This document shows positions 1 through 39,816 of a DNA stretch of 40,741 nt, piece after piece; within the stretch, counting starts at the first letter, position 1, and each line of letters begins with the position of its first letter. The position numbers and the translations under genes are program-made. A model generated the notes under the pieces. The model was not told the DNA's origin. It saw nothing but the letters and a program-made list of their open reading frames with translations, and made no database searches. Origin of the DNA: Perkinsus olseni (Eukaryota); assembly GCA_013115125.1 (NCBI GenBank), contig JABANN010000307.1, forward strand, positions 1 to 40,741. Reading direction: 5' to 3'.

Positions 1-30
1 TAGTTGAGAGAATGGAGTGATAATGCGAGG

Positions 31-1068
31 CTAGTATGAGCACAGCTCCATTGTGTTATGTAGACAGTGCACGTGTTGGTCCCACACAGTAGAAAAACCA
101 CCAGCGTAGGCGATGTCGCCGTAAATGATGCTCAACCTAAACTTCTCGTTGGCCCTCACGTGAGCCAGCACACGGCCAGGATCCGAGTCTGGGAACTGGA
201 GGACTCCGAAACCGCTGACACCTCCCAGAATGCCGCCACCAGTAGTCCCCAAGTCACCAACAAGGAACACGCTGTGCCTTAGAGGGTCTCCAGCGACCAG
301 GCGTGGGGAGGGAGTGAACGTTCTGGAGGTACCGCTGCCTGTTGTGATTCGGATCGTAGAACCCTGGGCTACGTTGGGAATCGTAACCGAGTGGAAATAT
401 CCGGGGTCCCTGAACCCTTGACGTGTAGCTGGAATAGAGCACATATCCTGTGCCTTGTAGGTGCGGGGGCTACTGGTCTCATCATAACGAGTGGGTGTAG
501 TGGTACCGGGCCTCTGGTAGGATACGCTACCTTGCTCACTGGAGGCACTCACCCAATGGACTTGAAGGTTATCATCACCAACAACAGTAACAGCTTGTGT
601 TGGCTCATCATCACCCTGGGCGAAGGTAAGATCTGTTGAACAGACATCCGTACCATCAGCAGTACGATAACTGACCGTGTAACCACCACCACGTGGGTTG
701 ACAGGTCGGAGATCATAACCATCACTCCCAGTCAAAGCCGAGACCAGCACGCGCAGCATGGATAGTGAGGGTGCATCCTTCGGGGAGAACACGATAGTAT
801 CTCCAGTTAGCGCCTGCCGGTCTTTGGCCAACTGTATCTTCACAGGGTCATAACTGTGCTGTAGAACGTTCGGGTTGAGTCGAAAGTGCGATCCACGGCA
901 ACTGGAAGGGCTCGAAGTAGGAGACCTGACAGTAGTGGCGGGAGGAGTACTGGTAGTGGTGGTGCTCACAGGCGAAGAAGACGAGCAGCCCGCAAGATGG
1001 CAAAAGAAAGCGACAAGCAGAACCGATGGGGCGACTTTGCCAATAGGATGGTCAACAAGACTGGGCAT
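31..1068 (-). CDS. Purple acid phosphatase-like metallophosphoesterase, paralog 1 (C-terminal part absent from window)
   Basis: ATG at 1068; hydrophobic N-terminus, FN3-like region (RQGFRDPGYFHSV), GDLG and GDIAY motifs; collinear with the 1429-3111 protein. Frame stops shortly after WDQ, so the GNH and GHxH motifs are missing (intron running off the window, or truncation). Confidence 0.8.
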   Translation of the reverse strand: MPSLVDHPIGKVAPSVLLVAFFCHLAGCSSSSPVSTTTTSTPPATTVRSPTSSPSSCRGSHFRLNPNVLQHSYDPVKIQLAKDRQALTGDTIVFSPKDAPSLSMLRVLVSALTGSDGYDLRPVNPRGGGYTVSYRTADGTDVCSTDLTFAQGDDEPTQAVTVVGDDNLQVHWVSASSEQGSVSYQRPGTTTPTRYDETSSPRTYKAQDMCSIPATRQGFRDPGYFHSVTIPNVAQGSTIRITTGSGTSRTFTPSPRLVAGDPLRHSVFLVGDLGTTGGGILGGVSGFGVLQFPDSDPGRVLAHVRANEKFRLSIIYGDIAYAGGFSTVWDQHVHCLHNTMELCSY

Positions 1069-1428
1069 TCGGGAAACAAAAGAAGCCCTGGTCCGAATCC
1101 TGAGGCCCACCGGCAACACGGCACAAGGAGTCGCGAGAAAAAAACGTACAAAGGCCCGCCTTATTGCGATAGCCAGACGATGAGTTCAAACGCTCGCAGA
1201 TTACAGGTTACCGTTGCATCATGCAAGTTGGTGAGACGATTACGTCACCAATGAGCGTTCCTTCCCGAAGCGCAAAGACTTCGTCAACAACAAAAGGTCG
1301 TCGGGCAAGCGGTTCCAAGTCCTTCACAAACCTATTACTTCAAATTTTAACTACGTCAAAGCACCTCGAGAAAAAGATGAAGCCGCCAGGCAGCCGTAGG
1401 ATTAGCAGTTGAATCAAGACGCAATTCA

Positions 1429-3111
1429 TCACTTTTGCAAGACATATCTGTCCATGACCTTAACACTCTGCCCACTAGCATTCGGCGGGTGTCCCCAAAA
1501 GATGCACTCGAGTATGCTTGCATTATGGACCTTCATCTCGGTGTAGCCAAGCACTGTATCATATACCACCTCCGACCACCACGGTCTGGTATGATCACAA
1601 GGGTAAGCGAGGTACCGAGGGGAGCCGATCAGGGCATGATAAGTGCCATTGATGGGCTTGGTCCGCTCATAGCGATGCCAGTGCCCAGTGACGAAGAGAT
1701 CAACACCAAATTCTTCGAGTAACGGTTTAATATCAGATTCCATGTGCTGCAAAATACCACTTTCCATTCCGGGGTTTGTGCAGGTCTGATAGACAGGACG
1801 GTGAGAAGTGAAGACCAGCCATGGCGTGACACTTCTGTTGACCTTGGAAAGATCATCTCTGAGCCACCGATGCTGGGCGCTGCCGTTGGTAAATTCATGT
1901 TCGCTCGACATCATCACATAGTGCACCAGACCGTGGTCGAAGGAGTACCACCAGGCGAAGCCAGAATCGTTAAACCTCGGATAACGATGCTTGAACGGCA
2001 CGCCACACTCGCCACCAGCGTCATTGAACATGTAATTATTAGTAAAGTTGGGCTGCCAGGTCTGAGAGTTGTTCGTAGAGCCCCACTCATGATTGCCAAC
2101 GCTGACCATGAGAGGGTTCTGCATACCGAAGGTGTCTTCTATTTCCGCGCCATATTGGTCCCAGAGGGTGAGGAAACCGTTGGCGTAGGCCAGGTCGCCA
2201 ATAAGTACGTTCAGACGAATGTTCTTGTTCGCTGTAATCGCCGTTTGAGCAGGGCTTTGAAAGTCACCATAGAAGATCTTACCAAACCCTTCAGCCCCTC
2301 CCAGGGTGGTGACACCAGTGAAGCCCAAGTCACCGAACAAACCCACGCTATGCGGGGTAGGGTCGCCCGGCGGTAGAGCACTAGACGGCTTGAACTCTTC
2401 CGACATGACTTCATCAGACCCAAATTTTACCGTCAAATCCGGTGAATTAGGAATGAGGACGGAGTGGAAGTAGCCGGGGTCGCGCCAACCCGAACCTTTC
2501 GCGGGAAGGTCGCAGAGATCATCAACAGTATACGTCATCGGGTCGGCCATCTCGAGGGATCTCACCCAGCCTGTGGACCCTGTCTTGTACAAGACCCTCC
2601 CTCGGGCACTCGAACCGCTCACCCAGCTGATACGAAGAGACCCATTCCCCTCTGAGGTGATGTGGCCTTGCGTTGGCTCATCATCTCCCAGCCGGAAGGA
2701 TACGTCCGCGATATAGATGACCGTACCGTGCGAGTCTTGCAATCTCAACTCATAACCACTACTACGGGCATTTACAAGGTTCACGATGGCAGTGCCTCCG
2801 GGGTGCTCGGATGTCTCCAGCCGACCCACGTAGTCCGAGAGGGCATCTTTCGCGAGGATATGGATAACGTGATTTGCACGGTACTCAGAAGTCCACGAAA
2901 CTAACAGCGGGTCGAAGCTCCTCTCAAGGATGTTTGTTGACAGTTGCAGAGGCGGGGGTGGCGGTGCAGGGGTTTTTGTGGTAGTAGCGGAGGATTCCCC
3001 CGATTTAGAACAGCCCTTGAGGACGACCACGGCTGTGAAGAAGCATAAGCCCGTTATGAGCCGTCTCACAGATCGTATTCGAAGCCGTGAACAAGATGAC
3101 GCAGAGCCCAT
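1429..3111 (-). CDS. Purple acid phosphatase (calcineurin-like phosphoesterase with FN3-like domain), intronless, 560 aa
   Basis: All five PAP metal-binding motifs in order: GDLG, GDLAY, GNHE, FTSH, GHWH; also GWRDPGYFH, GGECGVP and WYSFDHGLVHYVMMSSEH. Confidence 0.93.
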   Translation of the reverse strand: MGSASSCSRLRIRSVRRLITGLCFFTAVVVLKGCSKSGESSATTTKTPAPPPPPLQLSTNILERSFDPLLVSWTSEYRANHVIHILAKDALSDYVGRLETSEHPGGTAIVNLVNARSSGYELRLQDSHGTVIYIADVSFRLGDDEPTQGHITSEGNGSLRISWVSGSSARGRVLYKTGSTGWVRSLEMADPMTYTVDDLCDLPAKGSGWRDPGYFHSVLIPNSPDLTVKFGSDEVMSEEFKPSSALPPGDPTPHSVGLFGDLGFTGVTTLGGAEGFGKIFYGDFQSPAQTAITANKNIRLNVLIGDLAYANGFLTLWDQYGAEIEDTFGMQNPLMVSVGNHEWGSTNNSQTWQPNFTNNYMFNDAGGECGVPFKHRYPRFNDSGFAWWYSFDHGLVHYVMMSSEHEFTNGSAQHRWLRDDLSKVNRSVTPWLVFTSHRPVYQTCTNPGMESGILQHMESDIKPLLEEFGVDLFVTGHWHRYERTKPINGTYHALIGSPRYLAYPCDHTRPWWSEVVYDTVLGYTEMKVHNASILECIFWGHPPNASGQSVKVMDRYVLQK

Positions 3112-3545
3112 TGATGGGGTAGCAACCTACGCAGGAGAGTAAGCGTGAGTGAGGTTACCACGCGGACCGACTCCGCCGGAATCCGTCAGAGCGCACAACG
3201 GCAACTTGTGCGCCACAAGAAATATGAAATTCTTGTAACGAGAGATCCGCAGGAGTTCGATAAAATTCAACACTAGAGCTAGCAATAGGTACAGCCATAA
3301 AGTTATGGCTGTAATAATGGCGGATACGAGCTCGCCCCAGCCTTCCGCTCCCAGGATGTGGAGGTAGGGTACTAGAGGCTGCTGATTCGACCCAGAGTGG
3401 GTATGGAGTCAGGCGGCTCTAGTGTCCTACTGAACCGTGGTGGCTTCCAACTGCTGGTTGGCAACAATCACTGTTCACACCCTCACCCTCTGCATCACTA
3501 TCACCACGTTAAGAGAGGATAACGAAAATCTCCTCACATTCCGCG

Positions 3546-4191
3546 GGCACGTCCATCGGGTGTCACTAAATTCTCCGTCCTAATCACTAAAAGTAGCGCG
3601 CGCCCAACTGATCGATATCTGCGCACCGCGTTCCCCAGGCACGTGTTGCGTTTTGCACTGCTCATAGCGCACATGGCCCATCGTATACAACCAGCGAACA
3701 CGTTCCGCTCTCGGCATGGTGATGAAGTTGGCCCTCAGCAGAAAAACAAAAGAATCGCCACCAGAAACCCGAAGGATTACCCAAGGCAACCCGAAACCGG
3801 AAGGTTTACCAAGGCAACCCGAAACCGGAAGGGTTACCCAAGGCAACCCGAAACCGGAAGGTTTACCAAGGCAACCCGAAACCGGAAGGGTTACCCGAGG
3901 CAGCCAGAAACCCGAGGGATCACCCAAGGCAACCAGAAACCGGAAGGGGCTATGTAAATTCCTCCGGAGTCCGGAGGAATCGGCAGCAATGGGAAAGCGC
4001 GTAGATATCGATCAGTTGGGCGCGCGCAACCAGGAACCCGAAGGGTTACCCAAGGGCACTTTAATCGACTCCGGTTTCCGGAGTCCGGAAGAGGCGGCAG
4101 CAGTAGGGAAGCGCGCAGATATCGATCAGTTGGGCGCGCGCTAGATTTAGTGATTAGGACAGAGAATTTAGTGACAGCCGATGTTTGTGCC
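3546..4191. mobile_element. Non-autonomous DNA transposon (MITE-like; Merlin- or Mutator-type ends)
   Basis: 79-bp terminal inverted repeats 3546-3624 / 4113-4191 (7 mismatches) starting GGCAC; perfect 9-bp direct repeat CATTCCGCG at 3537-3545 and 4192-4200; no transposase. Confidence 0.9.
3756..3951 (+). repeat. Minisatellite, about 7 copies of a 28/29-bp unit (CCAAGGCAACCCGAAACCGGAAGG(T/G)TTA(C)) inside the transposon
   Basis: Directly visible; central copies alternate 28 and 29 bp, forming a 57-bp higher-order unit; outer copies are degenerate. Confidence 0.95.
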
Positions 4192-5119
4192 CATTCCGCG
4201 CGTCACGTTACATCTTGCTCTCTTGCGATTCCTCAACGACCGGGACTCATCCTCATCCTTCTCAGGTGGATGAAGTTCGGCATGTAATCATGGCTACAAC
4301 AGAACTTGGGGCCGCTAGCCGATGTCGGGCCACTGATCATAACACCACGGGTTCCGATCTACAACCGTTGTGCCCCAGCCGGCGTCCTTGGGGTTGGTTC
4401 GGTTGGCCTAGTGGCATGCTGATGAGTGATAAGCCTTCGACCAGTCATTTTTGACAGAAGCAGCGGCGAAGGCCTTCATTCCGATCCTCCAACCACCCAA
4501 TAGGATGACGTTCAGTTGTGACGCATCTATTGCCAAAGGTACCTGACCTCGCTGTGGCCACAAGTATGGCGGAAGAACCGCTGGTCGTGAGCATACTTGT
4601 GTTACGTTGGAAATCACGAGCATTCAAAGCGTTGTTGCATACTACACCATTTCCCGATAAAAACCTCTCACAAGCCCATTATGAGGGTGATCACTCTACT
4701 TAATTTTTGTCACAAATTTTATTTTTTTGTCGAACAATATTCACCCGAAATTTATTTCTCGTCATGCTCGATCTGAAGTGTATAGCAATCGGTTTGAAGT
4801 CAAACCGCTTCATGGCGTCACGACCTATTCATGGTAGGCTGCAGTGTAATCGATACACTTCTTCGACCTGCGTGACTACGCCAGTGCCTAGGGGCAACCA
4901 CGTGTTGTGATTGTTGCGGTACTCGACTGCCATGGTAACCTCGTCAGAGTACTCTTGGAGTATTCGTTTGATCAGTAAATGGTGTAGACATTATAGTAGG
5001 CTTTTCGGTGGCGCCATTAAACATGAGGCTTTTAAGCGTTGGCAACAGTCTCGCAATAGACGTTCAACGAATCTGCGCTCTGTGACATGCGAAAGTGACA
5101 GATGTGAAGCGCTGTGTAG

Positions 5120-15079: not shown

Positions 15080-17370
15080 CTACTTCGCGGAGTTCCTCTG
15101 CGCGGCCATCTCTCGGTACTTTCTCTTACGCCGCTTGGTCTCCTTTATCTTCTCATCGAACCCAACCTGACCGACCGTATCGTAGTACCACTACAGCGTT
15201 GATTCATACATGTCTGGCATCGAAAATCGGCCCGCCGCGCATTTTCTGCTTTTCTTGTAACGGCTTGGCCCAGACACGAGATTTCCCTCCAACCCGAAAA
15301 CCACTCTGAGTATCTTTCGCATTCGAGAGAGCCCATCGAAATGTCTCTTTTTGAGTCGCTCCAGTGGCAATCCTTTACTCACTATAACTACAAAATAGCA
15401 GCGCTGGGGTTCGAACCCACGCATTACGTTCAAGTATGAAGAAGTCGCCACCACCAACAACCCCACTATCGTACAGTACCTCGAAAAGCATCAGTTCAGC
15501 TTCCTGAACGGCCTTTGAAGTCTTCGTCAGCAACTTCAGTATGGTGGCGTCCTCATCTTCAATCTCCAACTTCTCCATGGTCACCTAATGAAACGACAGG
15601 TGCTGAAAAATGTCGGAAAATTTCTCTTTTGTTGCTCTTCAAGCTCAACCTATTGTCACCCCTAAGAACTCCCATAGCTCAAACCCTGTCCTATCGCGCC
15701 ACCACCAGCACTATCGTAGTGACATCAGACTGCCAACCGCACCCGTCACACGCCAGGAGCCTGCCCTCCCATGATGAGAGCCCCATCCACCCCTACTACC
15801 CCCATCCGTTCCTCCACGCTCTTGACCAGTTTCACATCTCCTTCAGTGACGATACTCACAGCATCTCCCTTCCTGCCAGCTCTCGCAGTTCGACCAGCCC
15901 GATGGACGAAGTCGTCAGGACTCGTTGGCAGCTCGTAATTCAATACCACTCCAACTTGAGGGATATCCAAACCACGACTAGCCACATCAGTCGCCACCAG
16001 TACGCGAACCTTGGCGTTTCTGAACTTCCCCAGTGAGGCCGTGCGCCGCCGCTGATCCTGCAGACTGTGAAGGGCGGCCACCGAGACGCCCAATTTCTCC
16101 AACGTCGAAGCTACGAGCTGGCACGAGCGCAAAGTGGCCGTGAAAATGATCATACTATCCTCAGAGAACTTCTGGCAGACCAAGTAGTTGAGATAGGACA
16201 TCCTTACCATAGCTGGTATAAAGACATACCGAAGCCTCAGATTCGTGGGCAAGTCGCTGCTCGGGTTTGCGTCCAGCAATGGCATTGAGTCCTCCCCGTA
16301 TCTGTCCTGCAGAGCCATCACGTTGTCCGACAGGGTCGCCGTGAAGAGAAGCGTCTGCCGCTTGGCTTTGCCAGGGAGGGCTCGCATGATGTCAGCAATA
16401 GAGCTCTCGAACCCCGACCCGGAGACCAACAGCCGATCGGCCTCATCCAGTACGAGGAACTCTGTGTGAGCAAAGGCCTCGACTAGCGATGAATCGCCAT
16501 TGAGGATCTCCGCGAGTCTCCCCGGTGTCGCAACTACGATGTGGGGCCGATCGTGGATTTGGTTGATTTGTGGTAGGAGACTAGTGCCTCCGACCACGCA
16601 AGAGATCTGACCGTCGATGGGCTTGGAAAGGGCCTCGAATTGCTCGGTGATCTGCACGGCCAGCTCTCGCACCGGCGTGAGGATAACAGCGAAGACGCCG
16701 AAGGGATCCTTGGAGAGCTTCTGGAGGATCGGGAGGGCGAAAGCGGCTGTCTTGCCACTGCCTGAAGAGCGGTAAAAGTTTGGAGATCAACGCGAGATCG
16801 ATGAAGCAAAATCGGTAGCAAACTCACAAGTTCAACGGCAGAATCACTCAGAAACTATCGTTACTCTACAGTACGAAATTCTCGCGCGATTTATAGATAA
16901 GATAGAAGATAAGACTGAAGATAGTTCCTCAAGAGTCGGCCCAGAGTTGATGTCAATTCAAAGCACCACCGGCATCTCCAAGTTGACCCTGTCAATTTTC
17001 TCAGTCTGGAAGATCCCACAGGCCACTGAGCAGCGCAACTACAGAGACAGCACTAAGGATGCCATTCCCAGCCCTTAGTATCATCACACATAAGGAGGCA
17101 TCAATGCAGCAACCCTCAGCGATCTATGAATGAGCCAATAACAATTCGCTGTAGAAGTTCCTCTACCAAGCCCACTATTTCCCTTGCCCTCCCCTCAGTA
17201 CCTGTCTTGCTGGCCCCGACGACGTTTTTCCCGTCCAGAATGGCGGGGATGGCGAGTCGTTGAATCAGCGTCGGTTTGGTGATCTCGAGGCTGCTGCAGA
17301 CGTCCACGACCCATTGGCTGAGGCCAAGGTCCTTGAAGGTCTTGGCTTCGCGCCGGCTCGATGATGACAT
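15080..17370 (-). CDS. DBP8: DEAD-box RNA helicase DBP8/DDX49
   Basis: Exons 17370-17202, 16761-15800, 15584-15480, 15166-15080; Q motif, SKTGSGKT, LSKDPFGVFAVILTPVRELA, DEAD, HRAGRTARAGR and C-terminal GFDEKIKETKRRK typical of the subfamily. Confidence 0.9.
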
Positions 17371-17411
17371 AGTTTGAGAGGGGATGGGAGACTCGGATTT
17401 CAGGTGGTAAT

Positions 17412-17445
17412 AAAATGGAGGATGCAGGGATCGAACCTGCGTCTC
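17412..17445 (-). other. Isolated tRNA 3' end (T-arm, acceptor strand, discriminator) followed by TTTT
   Basis: Minus strand reads GCAGG-TTCGATC-CCTGC-ATCCTCC-A-TTTT with exact tRNA spacing; no D-arm or anticodon arm found adjacent. Confidence 0.6.
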
Positions 17446-18056
17446 TAGATACGTACCCACCCACAAGCATACGGAGCCCGAATAATTTCAAGTTGAGCAT
17501 CGCGGGAGATAATAGCTATGATAGAGAGAATGATGCGATAAAAGCTTTTAAGGTTCTCAGGGGAATCTCAGAAGTTCTGATCTTGTCACGTCATGCGTGT
17601 GCACGCGCGCAGACGATGCGTATGAGAGAACCTGTCAGCTTCCTCAAGTTGCTGACATCGCCTCGCTTGCGATCGCCCTTTTTGCGACTAGTGGTGGCAC
17701 ACTGTCTCCCAAACTCCCTCCTACTCGACGAACAGAATTTCAAGTTCGATAGGGGAATCGCAATCCCCTTATCTTCCAAAGTACTACTGTGACAGTAGTG
17801 GTGTATCATGCAATGATCTGGTCAAGGCGGTTTGCTCGTTCGACTGTGAATCAACGACCATGATAGCAAGAACTGTGAGGTAACACAAGCCACAGAATAT
17901 AGAGAATACTGATGAGCTAAAAACATCATGATACCGACAGGTCTACTACGACGGAGATCACCACCTGTGCACCTCCGCCACAGGCGCGTACACGCTGACT
18001 ACCACACCTTTTGGTATAACAGAAATTCTTGAAATTGTCGAAGGTCATGTAGAAGT

Positions 18057-28467: not shown

Positions 28468-30780
<2,313 letters not shown>

Positions 30781-34600: not shown

Positions 34601-36284
34601 TTCCTCATTAGGCGCTGTGTCCTGTTTCAGATCCATCCTGTCTGATGCCGACAACTGCACTCCCGAGAGACTGGCCTACGTGCTGGAACTTCTGACCAGC
34701 GTCTGCGTCGACGACCAGGGGTCTCTCAGCTCTGTTCTCGGCTCCGGTAACAGTCTGCCTCAGCACTGTGTCCGATTATGCTGTCAAGCGGGTTTCTTCG
34801 AGGCTGAGATAACCTTCGCGAAGCTGCAGGGAGTGGACGCTGTGGACCTGTTCGATCGGGCGCTGGAACTCCGCGACTGGGATACTTGCTTGGAAGCTCT
34901 CACCGAGGGCGCTTTGACTGAACGCTTATCGGAGATGGCGCGAGAGCTCGAACGGTGCGGTGAACTGGGTTGGCTGATGAGGGTGAGGGCCGAGAAAAGT
35001 GGTGCCGCAGCTGCCACTGCGGGGAAGCTTCTCGACGTTATTGTCTCATCCGCGAGACCGGAAACTGTGCGAGAACTCGAGCAGCTCTGGGCAGTGATGA
35101 CCAAAAGTGGAGATCGAGAGCATGCAGCGAGGCTGGCGATCAGGGGGTATCTTGACAACGGAGGAAGCCAGCAGACGCCAGAGCCTGCTCGAGGCCTCCT
35201 TGCTGCGGACTGCACGACTCCTCCCGGCGAAATTCCTGGTGAGCTTCGGCAGCCTGAAGTTGCAGAGTTGGTTGAGAACTCCCAGCCCGAGGTTGTTCTG
35301 TCCACGTTGGATCGATTGCAGTGCCAGAAGAAATGTTTGCTATTGGCCAAGGCGAGCTTGAAGCGCATGAATTCACCTCGGGGAGTCTTTGTGGTTCTCC
35401 GAAACAGCGAAATCTCTGCAGAGGGGTCACGGTTCCTGTTCGTCGACTTCGCCTGGGTGCAACTGAGACTTCAATACGTCTCCCTCTACTCGGCGGTAGT
35501 TGAACTCACTCACGTCAGTGTGGGTGCCGTGGACCCATGGCGCCTCTGTCGAATCGGCTCCTCGCTGGGGCTCCTCAAGCCCGCCGTAGACCTGGCTCGC
35601 TTGGCTGGTCTGGATCCTTGGTCGTCTTGCTTTTTGCCGTTTGTCGAGCTCATCCGGCGGGATGAGAGACCAGCCCTTGCGAGAGAGGATGGCGAGCCGT
35701 CGTTGATGCGGTATGCTTTCACGAGGTTCGACTCGGTCTCGCCCTTGCAGTGTGATGGCAGCACTACTGAGCCCTTGTGGTCAACCCTATTAGTTCTGAC
35801 CGAGAACGACACATACGCTCTGGCTCATGTTCTTGTCTACCTGCTCCGGGTTGAGAAGGCGGCAGTCCCTGATGAACTTGTTGCGAAGCTGCTGGACTTA
35901 GACTGGCTGGCACTACTCAGAGCCTTCATGGTCACGGGTGAACTCGAGCAGGCAGCAGATCTCGCTGTGCAGCAGGTCGAAGACTGGGATCCTCAAGACA
36001 AAGGCTCTCCGATGGACTTGGCACTGATATTGCAAGTGATGGAAGCGCTGGATGCCGCTGTTGACAATGGGAGCGGTGAATTGGTACTAACCATGAAAAG
36101 CTCGTTCGCTTTCGCCCTCGACCATTCTCCTCGGGTTATCTGTGGCTTGGACACCGCGTCGTTCGGTGTGTAGGTACCCCAAAGAGACGCCCTAGGCGGA
36201 GCGGTGGAAGGCCTGAGGGATCGTTTACGTATTGAAGATGAGAGAGCTGTTGGGCTCGCTAAGCTTGGACCTATGTCCTTCTAA
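31639..36284 (+). CDS. NUP160: Nucleoporin Nup160/Nup120-like protein, multi-exon (5' exons uncertain)
   Basis: Beta-propeller-like N-half with SVWSKMTSMF insertion and LLSVTADGCCRRWS; helical C-half ending LLRVEKAAVPDELVAKLLDLDWLALLRAFMVTGELEQAADL...LILQVMEAL, resembling the Nup160 C-terminus. Confidence 0.65.
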
Positions 36285-36369
36285 GTATGATTTCTCCTGC
36301 TCTCCTAGGAACTGCGTTCTGTTAGATGTGGCTCGCTTCATCGGTCTTGCTCAGCTTTTTTCCGCAGCT

Positions 36370-39300
36370 ATGGTGCACCAGGGCGAAGAGGCCCCGCTTA
36401 CCTACAACATCAGTGCTCTCCTCGAAGCGGCTTTCCGTGGTGACGTCGGTGGCATGCAGGCCATCCTGGCTGCTAACCCGACCATGACCGTCAACGACCA
36501 GGACTATGACAAGCGCACTGCTCTTCACCTGGCTGCTGCTGGCGGCAAAGTCCAGGCCGTCAAGTTTCTCGTCGAAAATGGTGCTGTTCTCAAACCCGAT
36601 CGATTCGGCATGCTTCCGATCCATGATGCGGTGATGAACGGCCACTCCGATATCCGTACCATGCTCGCTGATCTCGACCTGTCCTTTGCTGGTGGTATGT
36701 GCTATCTGTCCCCTACCCAGATGGATCTGCTGAGAGACCAGTTGGGGTCCTTCAGTGCTGAGATAAGTCTGACCGGCGAAGAACTGGAGGCCAAAATGAC
36801 GCAAGTTTTCGCCATCATCGTCAAGGAAGGCGTTTTCGCGGCGAAGAGGTTGTGGACGGAGATCCAGTACTACTTCATCGATCTGGGCTTGCACCCCAAG
36901 TACTTCAAGGTCTTCACCAGCGACCAGATCGCAAGGCATATCCATAGTCTCCTGGCGGCCAGGAAGGTCGCCCAGACAACCAAGTCTGACTTCATCCATT
37001 TCGAGATCGAGGAGCCCGACTCGGCGTTCTTCCTCGCTACGTTGGATCCGACTAGGGTGTGGGAAACCGAGCGCAAGGTGGCGAACTACCTCTCCAATTT
37101 CCGCAGCGATGATGCTTTCTCCGTGGTCTTTATGCGATCTGACAAGTCCCCAATACAGGACGGCGGAGGTCTGCCACTCGGGATCTTCATAGTCGACAAA
37201 ACGCACTTCCAGCCTGGTGTGTACGCGTCGAAGGACGTGGGTGACGAAGAGAATATCAAAGTGGTGGCGAGTGAGAAGTTTCTTAAGTCCAAGACGGAGG
37301 AGAATCAGCAATTCTATCAGTCTCTCATTCACGAGGCGATGGTCACTCGGAACGCTGTCGTGAGAATCATAGAGCCTCCAGCTCACATGGTCACCAAGGC
37401 CGGAGCTAAGATAGTCCAGTTCGCCGCCTATGATGCTGAGCGCAGAGGCAAGGCCTACATGCTAGAGGTCTATGAGTGCTTGAGGTCCCACAAAGTTATG
37501 CCCAGAAGGATGTACGTGGAGACCTTCGCCAATGGCATCGTCACCTATCACATGTACTTTGATCCGGCCTTTACTCCGGATCAGCTGGAGGAGTTGGCTC
37601 AGACACTCCGCTATGCTAGCCATTTCAAGCACAGTCCGAAGAGGTCGGCGCTGGTCTGGGATCTGGTGTTGAAAAACGAGATCACTCCCGAGCATGCCAT
37701 TTTTCTCATCTCGGCCGCTAAGTTCGTCTTCTCGTTCTTTCCGAAGGAAACTCACGAGTACTTGGACCTGGCCGACTTCTTCAAGTCCAACCAGGATATG
37801 AAGAGCAAGCTGGATGAGATGTTCTTGCAGACCATGTCCAACTCCATCACCTACGAGCGCATCTACGACGCTCTGTCCACCCACTATGCTCTGACCCTAC
37901 CGGTGTTTGAGGATTTTAAGAGGATCGCCACGGGCGAATGCAAGCCATTCAACAACGATGAATTGGAGAAGAGAATAGACGAGGAGGTGTGGTCCCGGTT
38001 CGACGGGAAAATCCTGAAGACTCTCCTCAAGCTCAATGCCCATCTGCAGATGACCAACTTTTTCAAGGCTGGCACGGCCGCCGCCATCGCCATGAGGTTC
38101 GACGGTCAAGTGGTGTCTGACAGGCCCAAGAGCCTCTTCCCGGTCGTCCCGCATGCAGTGTATCTGATAGTTGGGCGGAACTTCTACGGCTTCCATATAA
38201 GGTTCCGAGATATCGCTCGGGGTGGGATTAGGATGATCATGTCGAGGAACCGCCAAGTTTATAACAAAAACTGCGCCACCCTGCTCGAGGAAAACTACAA
38301 TCTGGCTCTTACGCAGCAGCTGAAGAATAAGGACATTCCTGAAGGAGGGTCTAAGGGGACGATACTACTGGACTTGGAAGACCAGCATCTCCAGACGAGC
38401 GGTCGTGATGCCTTCAACAAGTACATCGATGCCCTACTGGACTGTATGATGTGGAAGGAGACTGGCCTGGCCTCGCATCTTCCCAGGGAAGAGATCCTCT
38501 TCTTTGGCCCTGACGAGAACACCGCCGGGTTCATGGACATGGGGGCGTACAGGGCGAAGGCGCGAGGCTACACCTACTGGAAGGCATTGACCACCGGCAA
38601 GTCTACCAAGTTGGGTGGTGTACCCCATGACAAGTACGGTATGACCACCAACTCGATTCACGAGTATGTCTTGCAGTTGTTGGACGCCCTGGACATCCAG
38701 GAGTCTTCAGTGACGAAGGTTATGACTGGTGGTCCCGACGGCGACCTCGGCTCCAACGAGATTCTCATATCCAAGGACAAGACTATCGCTATCTGTGATG
38801 GTTCTGGTGTTCTGTACGATCCTGAAGGACTGGACAGAGGGGAGCTCACGAGGCTGGCTAGGGAGAGGAAGCCCGTCTCGTATTTTGATCGTAGTAAGCT
38901 GTCTGCCAACCCGAAGTCCTTTTTGGTTAAAGTCGATGACACTGATGTTGTCCTGCCGAATGGTCAGCACTACAAGTCCGGCGTGGATGTGCGCAACACC
39001 TTCACGTCTCTCGAGTACTGCTCGGCCGATCTCTTCGTTCCGTGCGGAGGGCGTCCGGCTACTGTGAACATCCGGAACATTCAAGACATGTTCCACGCCG
39101 AGACTAAGCAGCCGAAGTTCAAGTTCATCGTCGAAGGCGCCAATCTGTTCTTCACCGACGATGCGAGGCGTGTGCTGGAAGACGCTGGTGTGCATCTCTT
39201 CAAGGACGCGTCTACTAACAAGGGAGGGGTCACTTCGTCGAGCTTGGAGGTGTTCGCTGCTCTGTGCATGGACCCCGACGACCATGAGAAGAACCTGACG

Positions 39301-39816
39301 GTGAAGGACCCTAACAGCCCACCTCCCGAGTTCTACGAACAATATGCGCAGGAGATCATTTCTGTCATTCGCCACAATGCTAGGATGGAGTTCAACGGCA
39401 TCTGGACTGCCAATCATGAGGTCATGGTCGTCGACGGCTCCGACTTCGTTAAGAAGATTGATGCCAGCGCGATGCTCTCCAGAAAGATCAACCACCTTAA
39501 GGCATATATTATGGAGGTCCTAGAGGCGGAGGACCCCGAAAACGATTGGATGGTCCGCGCGGTCCTCAGGCGCTGCGTGCCACGACTGTTGCTGGTGCAT
39601 TGCGGACTCGACCAGATCCTGGAGCGCACGCCCGAGGCCTACATCATGGCCACGGTTGCCACTTGGATCGCCAGCACCTTCGTCTACAAGTATGGGCTCA
39701 ATGCCAGCGAGTTCGCCTTCTATCAGTTTATGCGGTCGTTGGAGCAAAGCAGCGGGGGAGAGATGACTCCGGCAGATATGGGGAGGCCGCGTCATTTGGG
39801 CTCCTTCAGCCTATAG
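36370..39816 (+). CDS. GDH2: Large NAD-specific glutamate dehydrogenase with N-terminal ankyrin repeats, intronless
   Basis: GFHIRFRDIARGGIR, QQLKNKDIPEGGSKG, FFGPDENTA, TGGPDGDLGSNEI, PCGGRP, IVEGANLF, NKGGVTSSSLEV; ATG 36370 follows a TTTTTTCCGCAG acceptor. Confidence 0.95.
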   Translation: MVHQGEEAPLTYNISALLEAAFRGDVGGMQAILAANPTMTVNDQDYDKRTALHLAAAGGKVQAVKFLVENGAVLKPDRFGMLPIHDAVMNGHSDIRTMLADLDLSFAGGMCYLSPTQMDLLRDQLGSFSAEISLTGEELEAKMTQVFAIIVKEGVFAAKRLWTEIQYYFIDLGLHPKYFKVFTSDQIARHIHSLLAARKVAQTTKSDFIHFEIEEPDSAFFLATLDPTRVWETERKVANYLSNFRSDDAFSVVFMRSDKSPIQDGGGLPLGIFIVDKTHFQPGVYASKDVGDEENIKVVASEKFLKSKTEENQQFYQSLIHEAMVTRNAVVRIIEPPAHMVTKAGAKIVQFAAYDAERRGKAYMLEVYECLRSHKVMPRRMYVETFANGIVTYHMYFDPAFTPDQLEELAQTLRYASHFKHSPKRSALVWDLVLKNEITPEHAIFLISAAKFVFSFFPKETHEYLDLADFFKSNQDMKSKLDEMFLQTMSNSITYERIYDALSTHYALTLPVFEDFKRIATGECKPFNNDELEKRIDEEVWSRFDGKILKTLLKLNAHLQMTNFFKAGTAAAIAMRFDGQVVSDRPKSLFPVVPHAVYLIVGRNFYGFHIRFRDIARGGIRMIMSRNRQVYNKNCATLLEENYNLALTQQLKNKDIPEGGSKGTILLDLEDQHLQTSGRDAFNKYIDALLDCMMWKETGLASHLPREEILFFGPDENTAGFMDMGAYRAKARGYTYWKALTTGKSTKLGGVPHDKYGMTTNSIHEYVLQLLDALDIQESSVTKVMTGGPDGDLGSNEILISKDKTIAICDGSGVLYDPEGLDRGELTRLARERKPVSYFDRSKLSANPKSFLVKVDDTDVVLPNGQHYKSGVDVRNTFTSLEYCSADLFVPCGGRPATVNIRNIQDMFHAETKQPKFKFIVEGANLFFTDDARRVLEDAGVHLFKDASTNKGGVTSSSLEVFAALCMDPDDHEKNLTVKDPNSPPPEFYEQYAQEIISVIRHNARMEFNGIWTANHEVMVVDGSDFVKKIDASAMLSRKINHLKAYIMEVLEAEDPENDWMVRAVLRRCVPRLLLVHCGLDQILERTPEAYIMATVATWIASTFVYKYGLNASEFAFYQFMRSLEQSSGGEMTPADMGRPRHLGSFSL

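Follow-up and report, generated by a model that had tools for sequence, protein, structure and literature searches.

A conserved Gly-Cys motif resembling a lipoprotein signal at the N-termini of purple acid phosphatases in Perkinsus

The stretch of Perkinsus olseni DNA analyzed here (contig JABANN010000307.1, positions 1 to 40,741 of the forward strand; hereafter the window, 40,741 nucleotides (nt) in full) carries near its start, on the minus strand, two neighboring phosphatase genes, paralog 1 and paralog 2. Their predicted products begin in a manner familiar from bacterial lipoproteins, with a hydrophobic segment that closes on L-x-G-C and is followed by a run of Ser, Thr and Pro. A preliminary description of the locus, made from its letters, raised the question of whether this protist might use such a signal to lipidate a Cys and hold an enzyme at a membrane. 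Our answer is a guarded one: we put at roughly 0.5 the probability that these N-termini serve as lipoprotein-like anchor signals, in which the Cys would be lipidated, the signal removed, and the enzyme fixed to the leaflet on the lumenal or outer side.

The evidence that carries this reading is conservation. Seven representatives of the clade bearing the box were compared, four from P. olseni (P0001, which is paralog 2, with LKGC; P0002, ITGC; P0004, a full-length allele of paralog 1, LAGC; and P0081, LAGC), two from P. marinus (P0005, LEGC; P0244, ISGC) and one from P. chesapeaki (P0083, DLGC). All seven start with an N-terminal signal whose n-region and hydrophobic region end in an invariant Cys, located at residue 22–34. 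An unanchored alignment leaves only M1, G33, C34 and P53 invariant within the first 61 residues, and pairwise identity averages 0.34 ahead of the domain versus 0.57 inside it, which bears out the remark in the preliminary description that the N-termini are otherwise diverged. Position −1 is Gly in every representative, −3 is Leu or Ile in six and Asp in one, and +2 is Ser in six and Ala in one. The claim that LxGC-S as a whole is kept therefore stands for the Gly-Cys pair (7/7) and falls for the flanking positions. The last charged residue of the n-region lies 17 residues from the Cys in five representatives, and 14 and 22 residues from it in the remaining two; the net charge of the n-region ranges from 0 to +5, and Ser, Thr, Pro and Gly make up 55–90% of the 20 residues after the Cys in all seven. 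Loss of the Cys in orthologs had been named beforehand as an observation that would speak against a lipidation signal; the residue is kept in 7/7 across the three species.

Within the window, the two boxes lie on the minus strand at 996–985 (LAGC) and 3021–3010 (LKGC), after a hydrophobic segment and before the Ser/Thr/Pro stretch, just as first described; LAGC does fit the bacterial lipobox, and LKGC does depart from it at one position, −2. When all six frames of the window were scanned, [LI]xGC followed a hydrophobic 12-mer in two of five words, namely LAGC and LKGC, while the same test on 100 order-3 Markov simulations gave a mean of 0.06 and reached two occurrences in 1 of the 100. The cut-off of this test (12-mer mean hydropathy of at least 2.0) was chosen after the values of 2.36 and 2.01 were known, and the test is weighed lightly; nor are the two occurrences independent, because the copies are paralogs. 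Conservation across three species is stronger support for the signal than this motif test.

Both start codons are set by remnants of the spliced leader. Transcript contigs from three of four runs span both genes and end at 3128, and most of 3169–4300 is uncovered. Run X8 alone is recorded as RNA, this status being a guess for X1 and X2. At 3128, one X8 contig carries nine extra letters that, together with the genomic AG, equal the final 11 nt of the Perkinsus leader (reverse complement); at 1089, five extra letters of an X1 contig and the genomic AG give its final 7 nt, a weaker case than that of paralog 2. The spliced leader of P. marinus is 22 nt long (PMC9399869). LKGC (Cys34) and LAGC (Cys28) therefore end true N-terminal hydrophobic segments, and in both proteins the Cys directly follows the sole segment of this kind. 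The public P. olseni models P0239 and P0230 join both paralogs into one protein; we regard these fusions as annotation errors because paralog 1 has a spliced-leader site of its own at 1089. Contigs of paralog 2 extend into the interval at 1089–1428 as far as 1146–1213, about 57–124 nt short of the paralog 1 acceptor at 1089, and the tight tandem of paralogs 2 and 1 may be transcribed as a single precursor that trans-splicing resolves.

Judged by their sequences, the products of both genes are purple acid phosphatases of the Npp/PPD type from Perkinsus olseni, and as enzymes they do not stand out within this known family. The four best named homologs of paralog 2 come from P. olseni and P. marinus, and in the clusters that contain the two window proteins every named member is from P. 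olseni. Paralog 2 matches the Metallophos domain (E 1.6e-13) and has all seven metal ligands (D261, D306, Y309, N340, H437, H477 and H479). Its closest solved structure is lupin PPD1 (3zk4; E 6.8e-38, the runner-up being at 2e-20), with which it shares an Fn3-like N-terminal part joined to a metallophosphoesterase domain. The motifs DxG, GDxxY, GNH[ED], xxH and GHxH are complete in P0001, P0002, P0004 and P0005, and the two paralogs share 39% identity over 283 amino acids (aa). These matches, along with the eukaryotic kin found in the tree below, confirm the initial designation of the pair as eukaryotic phosphatase paralogs. The copy of paralog 1 in the window keeps the first two of the five metal-ligand motifs and misses the last three. 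It diverges from the full-length alleles P0004, P0238 and P0239 after WDQH, at position 71/72, a junction also seen in contigs of two or three runs and in the P. olseni model P0230; since those three alleles are full length, two paralog 1 alleles exist. The repeat at window 1–72 starts with TG on the minus strand and is possibly a transposon end. Over 72–3111, both phosphatase genes are intronless (open frames, no contig joints), and the neighboring genes appear to be split into exons.

To place the box in the history of the family, the clade was compared with 211 other homologs, 133 of which begin with Met and carry an N-terminal hydrophobic segment. Unlike the box clade, these other Npp/PPD members have ordinary signal peptides: 131 of the 133 are without Gly-Cys, and the two that have it are without a tether (tether fraction 0.35). 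The box is also absent from all five proteins tested from the sister Perkinsus clade. A quick IQ-TREE tree with a midpoint root was built from 51 hand-picked rows (17 from Perkinsus and 34 others). In it, the 11 box-bearing rows fall on one side of a branch with a Shimodaira–Hasegawa-like approximate likelihood-ratio test (SH-aLRT) value of 99, sister to the second Perkinsus clade of six rows (support of 100 for the pair) and among named eukaryotic homologs; two rows taken as bacterial, one by name and one judged from its sequence, fall outside. Because the enzyme nests among eukaryotic homologs, the box appears to have been gained in Perkinsus rather than inherited as a bacterial relic, and its lack in the sister clade and in almost every other homolog points to a selected signal gained there. 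The simplest history would be that box and tether arose once, on a native enzyme of eukaryotic descent, before the three species diverged. A box acquired in this way and frozen ever since would imply a Perkinsus factor that reads it.

The remaining cysteines leave the box Cys in a singular position. The other cysteines of the mature chain in the box clade form co-varying pairs, numbered 55/141, 209/379 and 454/515 in P0004. Both members of the 55/141 pair are gone in paralog 2 (P0001 residues 55–133, window 2713–2949) and kept in the other six representatives, a co-varying loss that presumably marks a disulfide. At the domain start, the sister clade carries two Cys and the box clade a single one; the CLC motif of the sister clade holds two more, again against one in the box clade. 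The box Cys is the odd one out, without an evident intramolecular partner, although paralog 2 alone has an extra Cys536; an intramolecular disulfide for the box Cys was considered and, on the cysteine table, rejected, save for Cys536 in that one protein. The last 35 residues show no sign of a membrane segment at the C-terminus. Paralog 2 has nine N-glycosylation sequons versus 3.9 in shuffles (P 0.011), and its sequons and the charge of the n-regions fit, without proving it, a lumenal enzyme whose Cys would sit at the lumenal face of the membrane. Structural resources added little: the ESM Atlas gave no usable feature match for P0004 residues 1–60 (structure rows all with a template modeling (TM) score below 0.5) and two leads below 0.9, left unused, for P0001 residues 8–145, and an AlphaFold model of P0001, built from a five-row alignment with a mean predicted local distance difference test (pLDDT) score of 43, was likewise left unused.

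We hypothesize that Perkinsus added a lipoprotein-like anchor signal to an ancestral eukaryotic secreted phosphatase. The hydrophobic segment would insert in the membrane of the endoplasmic reticulum (ER) with the N-terminus cytosolic and the enzyme lumenal, a membrane enzyme would read [L/I]-x-G-C and attach a lipid to the Cys, and the signal would be cut off before the Cys. The phosphatase would then hang from the lumenal or outer leaflet by its lipid and the flexible Ser/Thr/Pro tether, and its role there might be to scavenge phosphate or nucleotides, whether on the surface of the cell or inside a vacuole. As to the modifying enzyme, our tentative preference, held at less than even odds, is for a box reader acting before cleavage, either an Lgt homolog or an unrelated analog. 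A route in which ordinary signal peptidase cuts first and a Hhat-like MBOAT acts afterwards seems improbable. The pre-cleavage reader is favored because the conserved residues sit upstream of the Cys; a transferase that reads the box before cleavage would explain Gly at −1 in 7/7 and Leu or Ile at −3 in 6/7.

The Hhat-like route nevertheless bears on how unusual the proposal is. As set out in PMC8061759, Hhat/Rasp palmitoylates Hedgehog and Spitz on the N-terminal Cys that signal cleavage uncovers; the Cys is acylated in the ER lumen, the protein is held at the membrane, and recognition lies downstream of the Cys, with a basic residue required within the first seven. The preliminary description had called Cys lipidation non-standard for eukaryotic secretory proteins, a statement that needs these substrates as its qualifier. 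The Perkinsus phosphatases, as predicted secretory proteins of a eukaryote, would resemble them if cleaved directly before the Cys, which has Gly at −1 and a tolerated Ser or Ala at +2 in 7/7. They differ from them in the upstream box, which the Hhat/Rasp substrates do not conserve. The plant GUP1/HHAT ortholog is reported to be inactive on peptides in a 2026 preprint (10.64898/2026.08.27.744591).

Several observations weigh against a lipoprotein-like anchor. The strict lipobox [LVI][ASTVI][GAS]C fits four of the seven boxes and fails on LKGC, LEGC and DLGC; of the seven N-termini, the Pfam model LPAM_1 matches one (E 2); and matches of lipoprotein models from NCBIfam reach E 0.03–0.4 on two of six proteins, far below the cut-offs of these models. 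The seven representatives are not independent, because all descend from one gain. The excess of sequons is non-significant in the six representatives other than paralog 2 (P 0.17–0.39). The basic residue that Hhat requires within +1 to +7 of the Cys is present in 2/7 and lacking in 5/7, and ordinary signal peptidase, going by its (−3,−1) rule (PMC12190922), would accept x-x-Gly ahead of the cut as well. Finally, Perkinsus is not among the names in the best 120 of 156 matches to Escherichia coli Lgt, in a search that covered proteins of 511–2000 aa, with few rows named and with Lgt of normal length, LspA, Lnt, Ali and MBOAT unsearched; the 20 sequences and 10 clusters of long Lgt-like proteins inspected among the matches listed are bacterial in appearance or nameless.

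Other explanations were weighed against the same observations. An uncleaved type II signal anchor, with the 17-residue segment left in the membrane, Gly-Cys at the end of its helix and the Cys perhaps S-acylated or involved in packing, would account for the basic n-region (up to +5), the near-constant 17-residue uncharged run, the stalk-like tether and the scant polar c-region of paralog 2 and P0002. Yet a segment of 17 residues, His and polar ones among them, is short for a stable anchor, and the end of a helix has no specific need for a Cys. Moreover, DHHC acylation takes place on the cytosolic side, opposite to the lumen that this Cys would face, and we consider such an anchor unlikely. We give somewhat less credence to an ordinary cleaved signal that leaves a free N-terminal Cys, without lipid, for an intermolecular disulfide with a second subunit, the cell wall or another protein. 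Plant purple acid phosphatases do include disulfide-linked dimers, the box Cys has no evident partner in its chain, and the site obeys the (−3,−1) rule; but this leaves unexplained why −1 is always Gly and never Ala (7/7) and why −3 is Leu or Ile in 6/7, and nothing would pin the Cys at +1 rather than elsewhere in the tether.

Less likely again is an accident of the family, in which an ancestral signal chanced to end in Gly-Cys and was kept by chance or for a family-specific reason. The tree does show a single gain, and a search with the N-terminal motif for other families returned only the two clusters of the query family (2 of 106 candidates). That search had low power and is uninformative either way, since the N-terminal profiles in a leave-one-out trial missed three of the seven family members at 44–52 columns and all seven at 25 columns; and the signal regions have drifted down to 34% identity with G and C unchanged, which speaks against such an accident. 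Least credible of all, and rejected as highly improbable, is a relic of a bacterial lipoprotein gene transferred whole, or bacterial contamination. Each gene does read as one open frame across the covered region, and LAGC matches the textbook lipobox, but the transcripts bear spliced-leader remnants, and the nearest kin are from Perkinsus and then eukaryotic enzymes. A relative was confirmed in none of 124 pattern matches from GTDB genomes, the phage search found no relative, and the plasmid search gave eight weak partial matches of 24–31% identity. A metagenome scan returned five loci, with 28–35% identity or a short stretch only.

Returning to the lipoprotein-like anchor, the closest known counterparts are the bacterial lipoproteins of the Sec/signal peptidase II (SPII) route (Lgt, LspA, Lnt). 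The Perkinsus proteins share with them a basic or neutral n-region, a hydrophobic segment, the terminal [L/I]-x-G-C, a small +2 residue, and a disordered Ser/Thr/Pro tether that leads to a folded domain; on sequence grounds, the signal appears to resemble a functional lipoprotein signal. Unlike bacterial lipoproteins, they stem from genes of eukaryotic descent with a spliced leader, and they have Lys, Glu or Leu at −2 in 3/7 and Asp at −3 in 1/7. A lipobox-like signal outside bacteria is also found in archaea, which lipidate lipobox proteins via AliA/AliB without Lgt (PMC12462473, PMC13631571). Non-Lgt enzymes can therefore serve a lipobox; as a point of difference, the lipid attached in Haloferax is thioether-linked archaeol. 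A literature search, with most subscription journals and supplements outside its scope, found no description of a Gly-Cys signal in Perkinsus; a chromerid photosystem subunit with a PS51257 match is mentioned in PMC5643376.

Table 1. Features of the two phosphatase genes in the window, with the basis of each assignment
Feature	Position	Strand	Basis
Paralog 2 spliced-leader acceptor AG	3127..3128	-	X8 contig loose end at 3128; first downstream ATG at 3111
Paralog 2 coding sequence (560 aa, P0001), predicted purple acid phosphatase of Npp/PPD type	1429..3111	-	Single open frame; contigs without joints
Paralog 2 n-region MGSASSCSRLRIRSVRR, net +5	3061..3111	-	Sequence reading
Paralog 2 hydrophobic segment LITGLCFFTAVVV	3022..3060	-	Hydropathy
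Paralog 2 box L-K-G-C (Cys34), fails strict lipobox at −2	3010..3021	-	Six-frame motif scan
Paralog 2 Ser/Thr/Pro tether, 75% S/T/P/G over 20 residues	2950..3009	-	Composition
Paralog 2 metallophosphoesterase domain, residues 257–481	1669..2343	-	Metallophos match
Paralog 1 spliced-leader acceptor AG	1088..1089	-	X1 contig extra letters at 1089; first downstream ATG at 1068
Paralog 1 coding sequence in the window (345 aa, P0082), predicted purple acid phosphatase ending after GDxxY	31..1068	-	Match to paralog 2 and full-length alleles
Paralog 1 n-region MPSLVDHPIGK	1036..1068	-	Sequence reading
Paralog 1 hydrophobic segment VAPSVLLVAFFCH	997..1035	-	Hydropathy
Paralog 1 box L-A-G-C (Cys28), fits strict lipobox	985..996	-	Six-frame motif scan
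Paralog 1 Ser/Thr/Pro tether	907..984	-	Composition
Repeat interrupting paralog 1	1..71	.	Loose contig ends at 71 in three of four runs; same 71 nt run on into different sequence elsewhere

Beyond the phosphatase pair, the window holds a few other features. Just upstream of paralog 2, at 3545–4192, lies an element bounded by terminal inverted repeats of 80 nt (91%); it has tandem repeats of 28/29 nt inside and a duplication of 65 nt. Its transcript cover is next to none, and it looks like a miniature inverted-repeat transposable element (MITE) or a non-autonomous DNA transposon. A 1194-aa open reading frame at 36232–39816 looks like a large glutamate dehydrogenase of the NAD-dependent kind that has ankyrin-like repeats at its N-terminus, and two DEAD-box helicase genes lie in pieces at 15746–17466 and 28970–30677, the second with a Gly/Lys-rich tail; these labels were given by reading only.

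If the Cys is lipidated, Perkinsus would have either a pathway of bacterial type at work in the ER of a eukaryote or a chemistry of lipid anchoring that is new. We consider possible, though doubtful, a general ER lipoprotein pathway in which a lipobox-reading transferase (bacterial Lgt or an independent invention) acts on a signal grafted onto unrelated native hydrolases, as an alternative to glycosylphosphatidylinositol (GPI) anchors. With such a pathway, if true, lipobox lipoproteins would occur in all three domains of life. Perkinsus is a transfectable alveolate and a killer of farmed oysters and clams; if the proposal is true, some proteins now annotated as merely secreted, or as hypothetical, would form a class of surface enzymes in this parasite, and treatment could be aimed selectively at the enzyme that modifies them.

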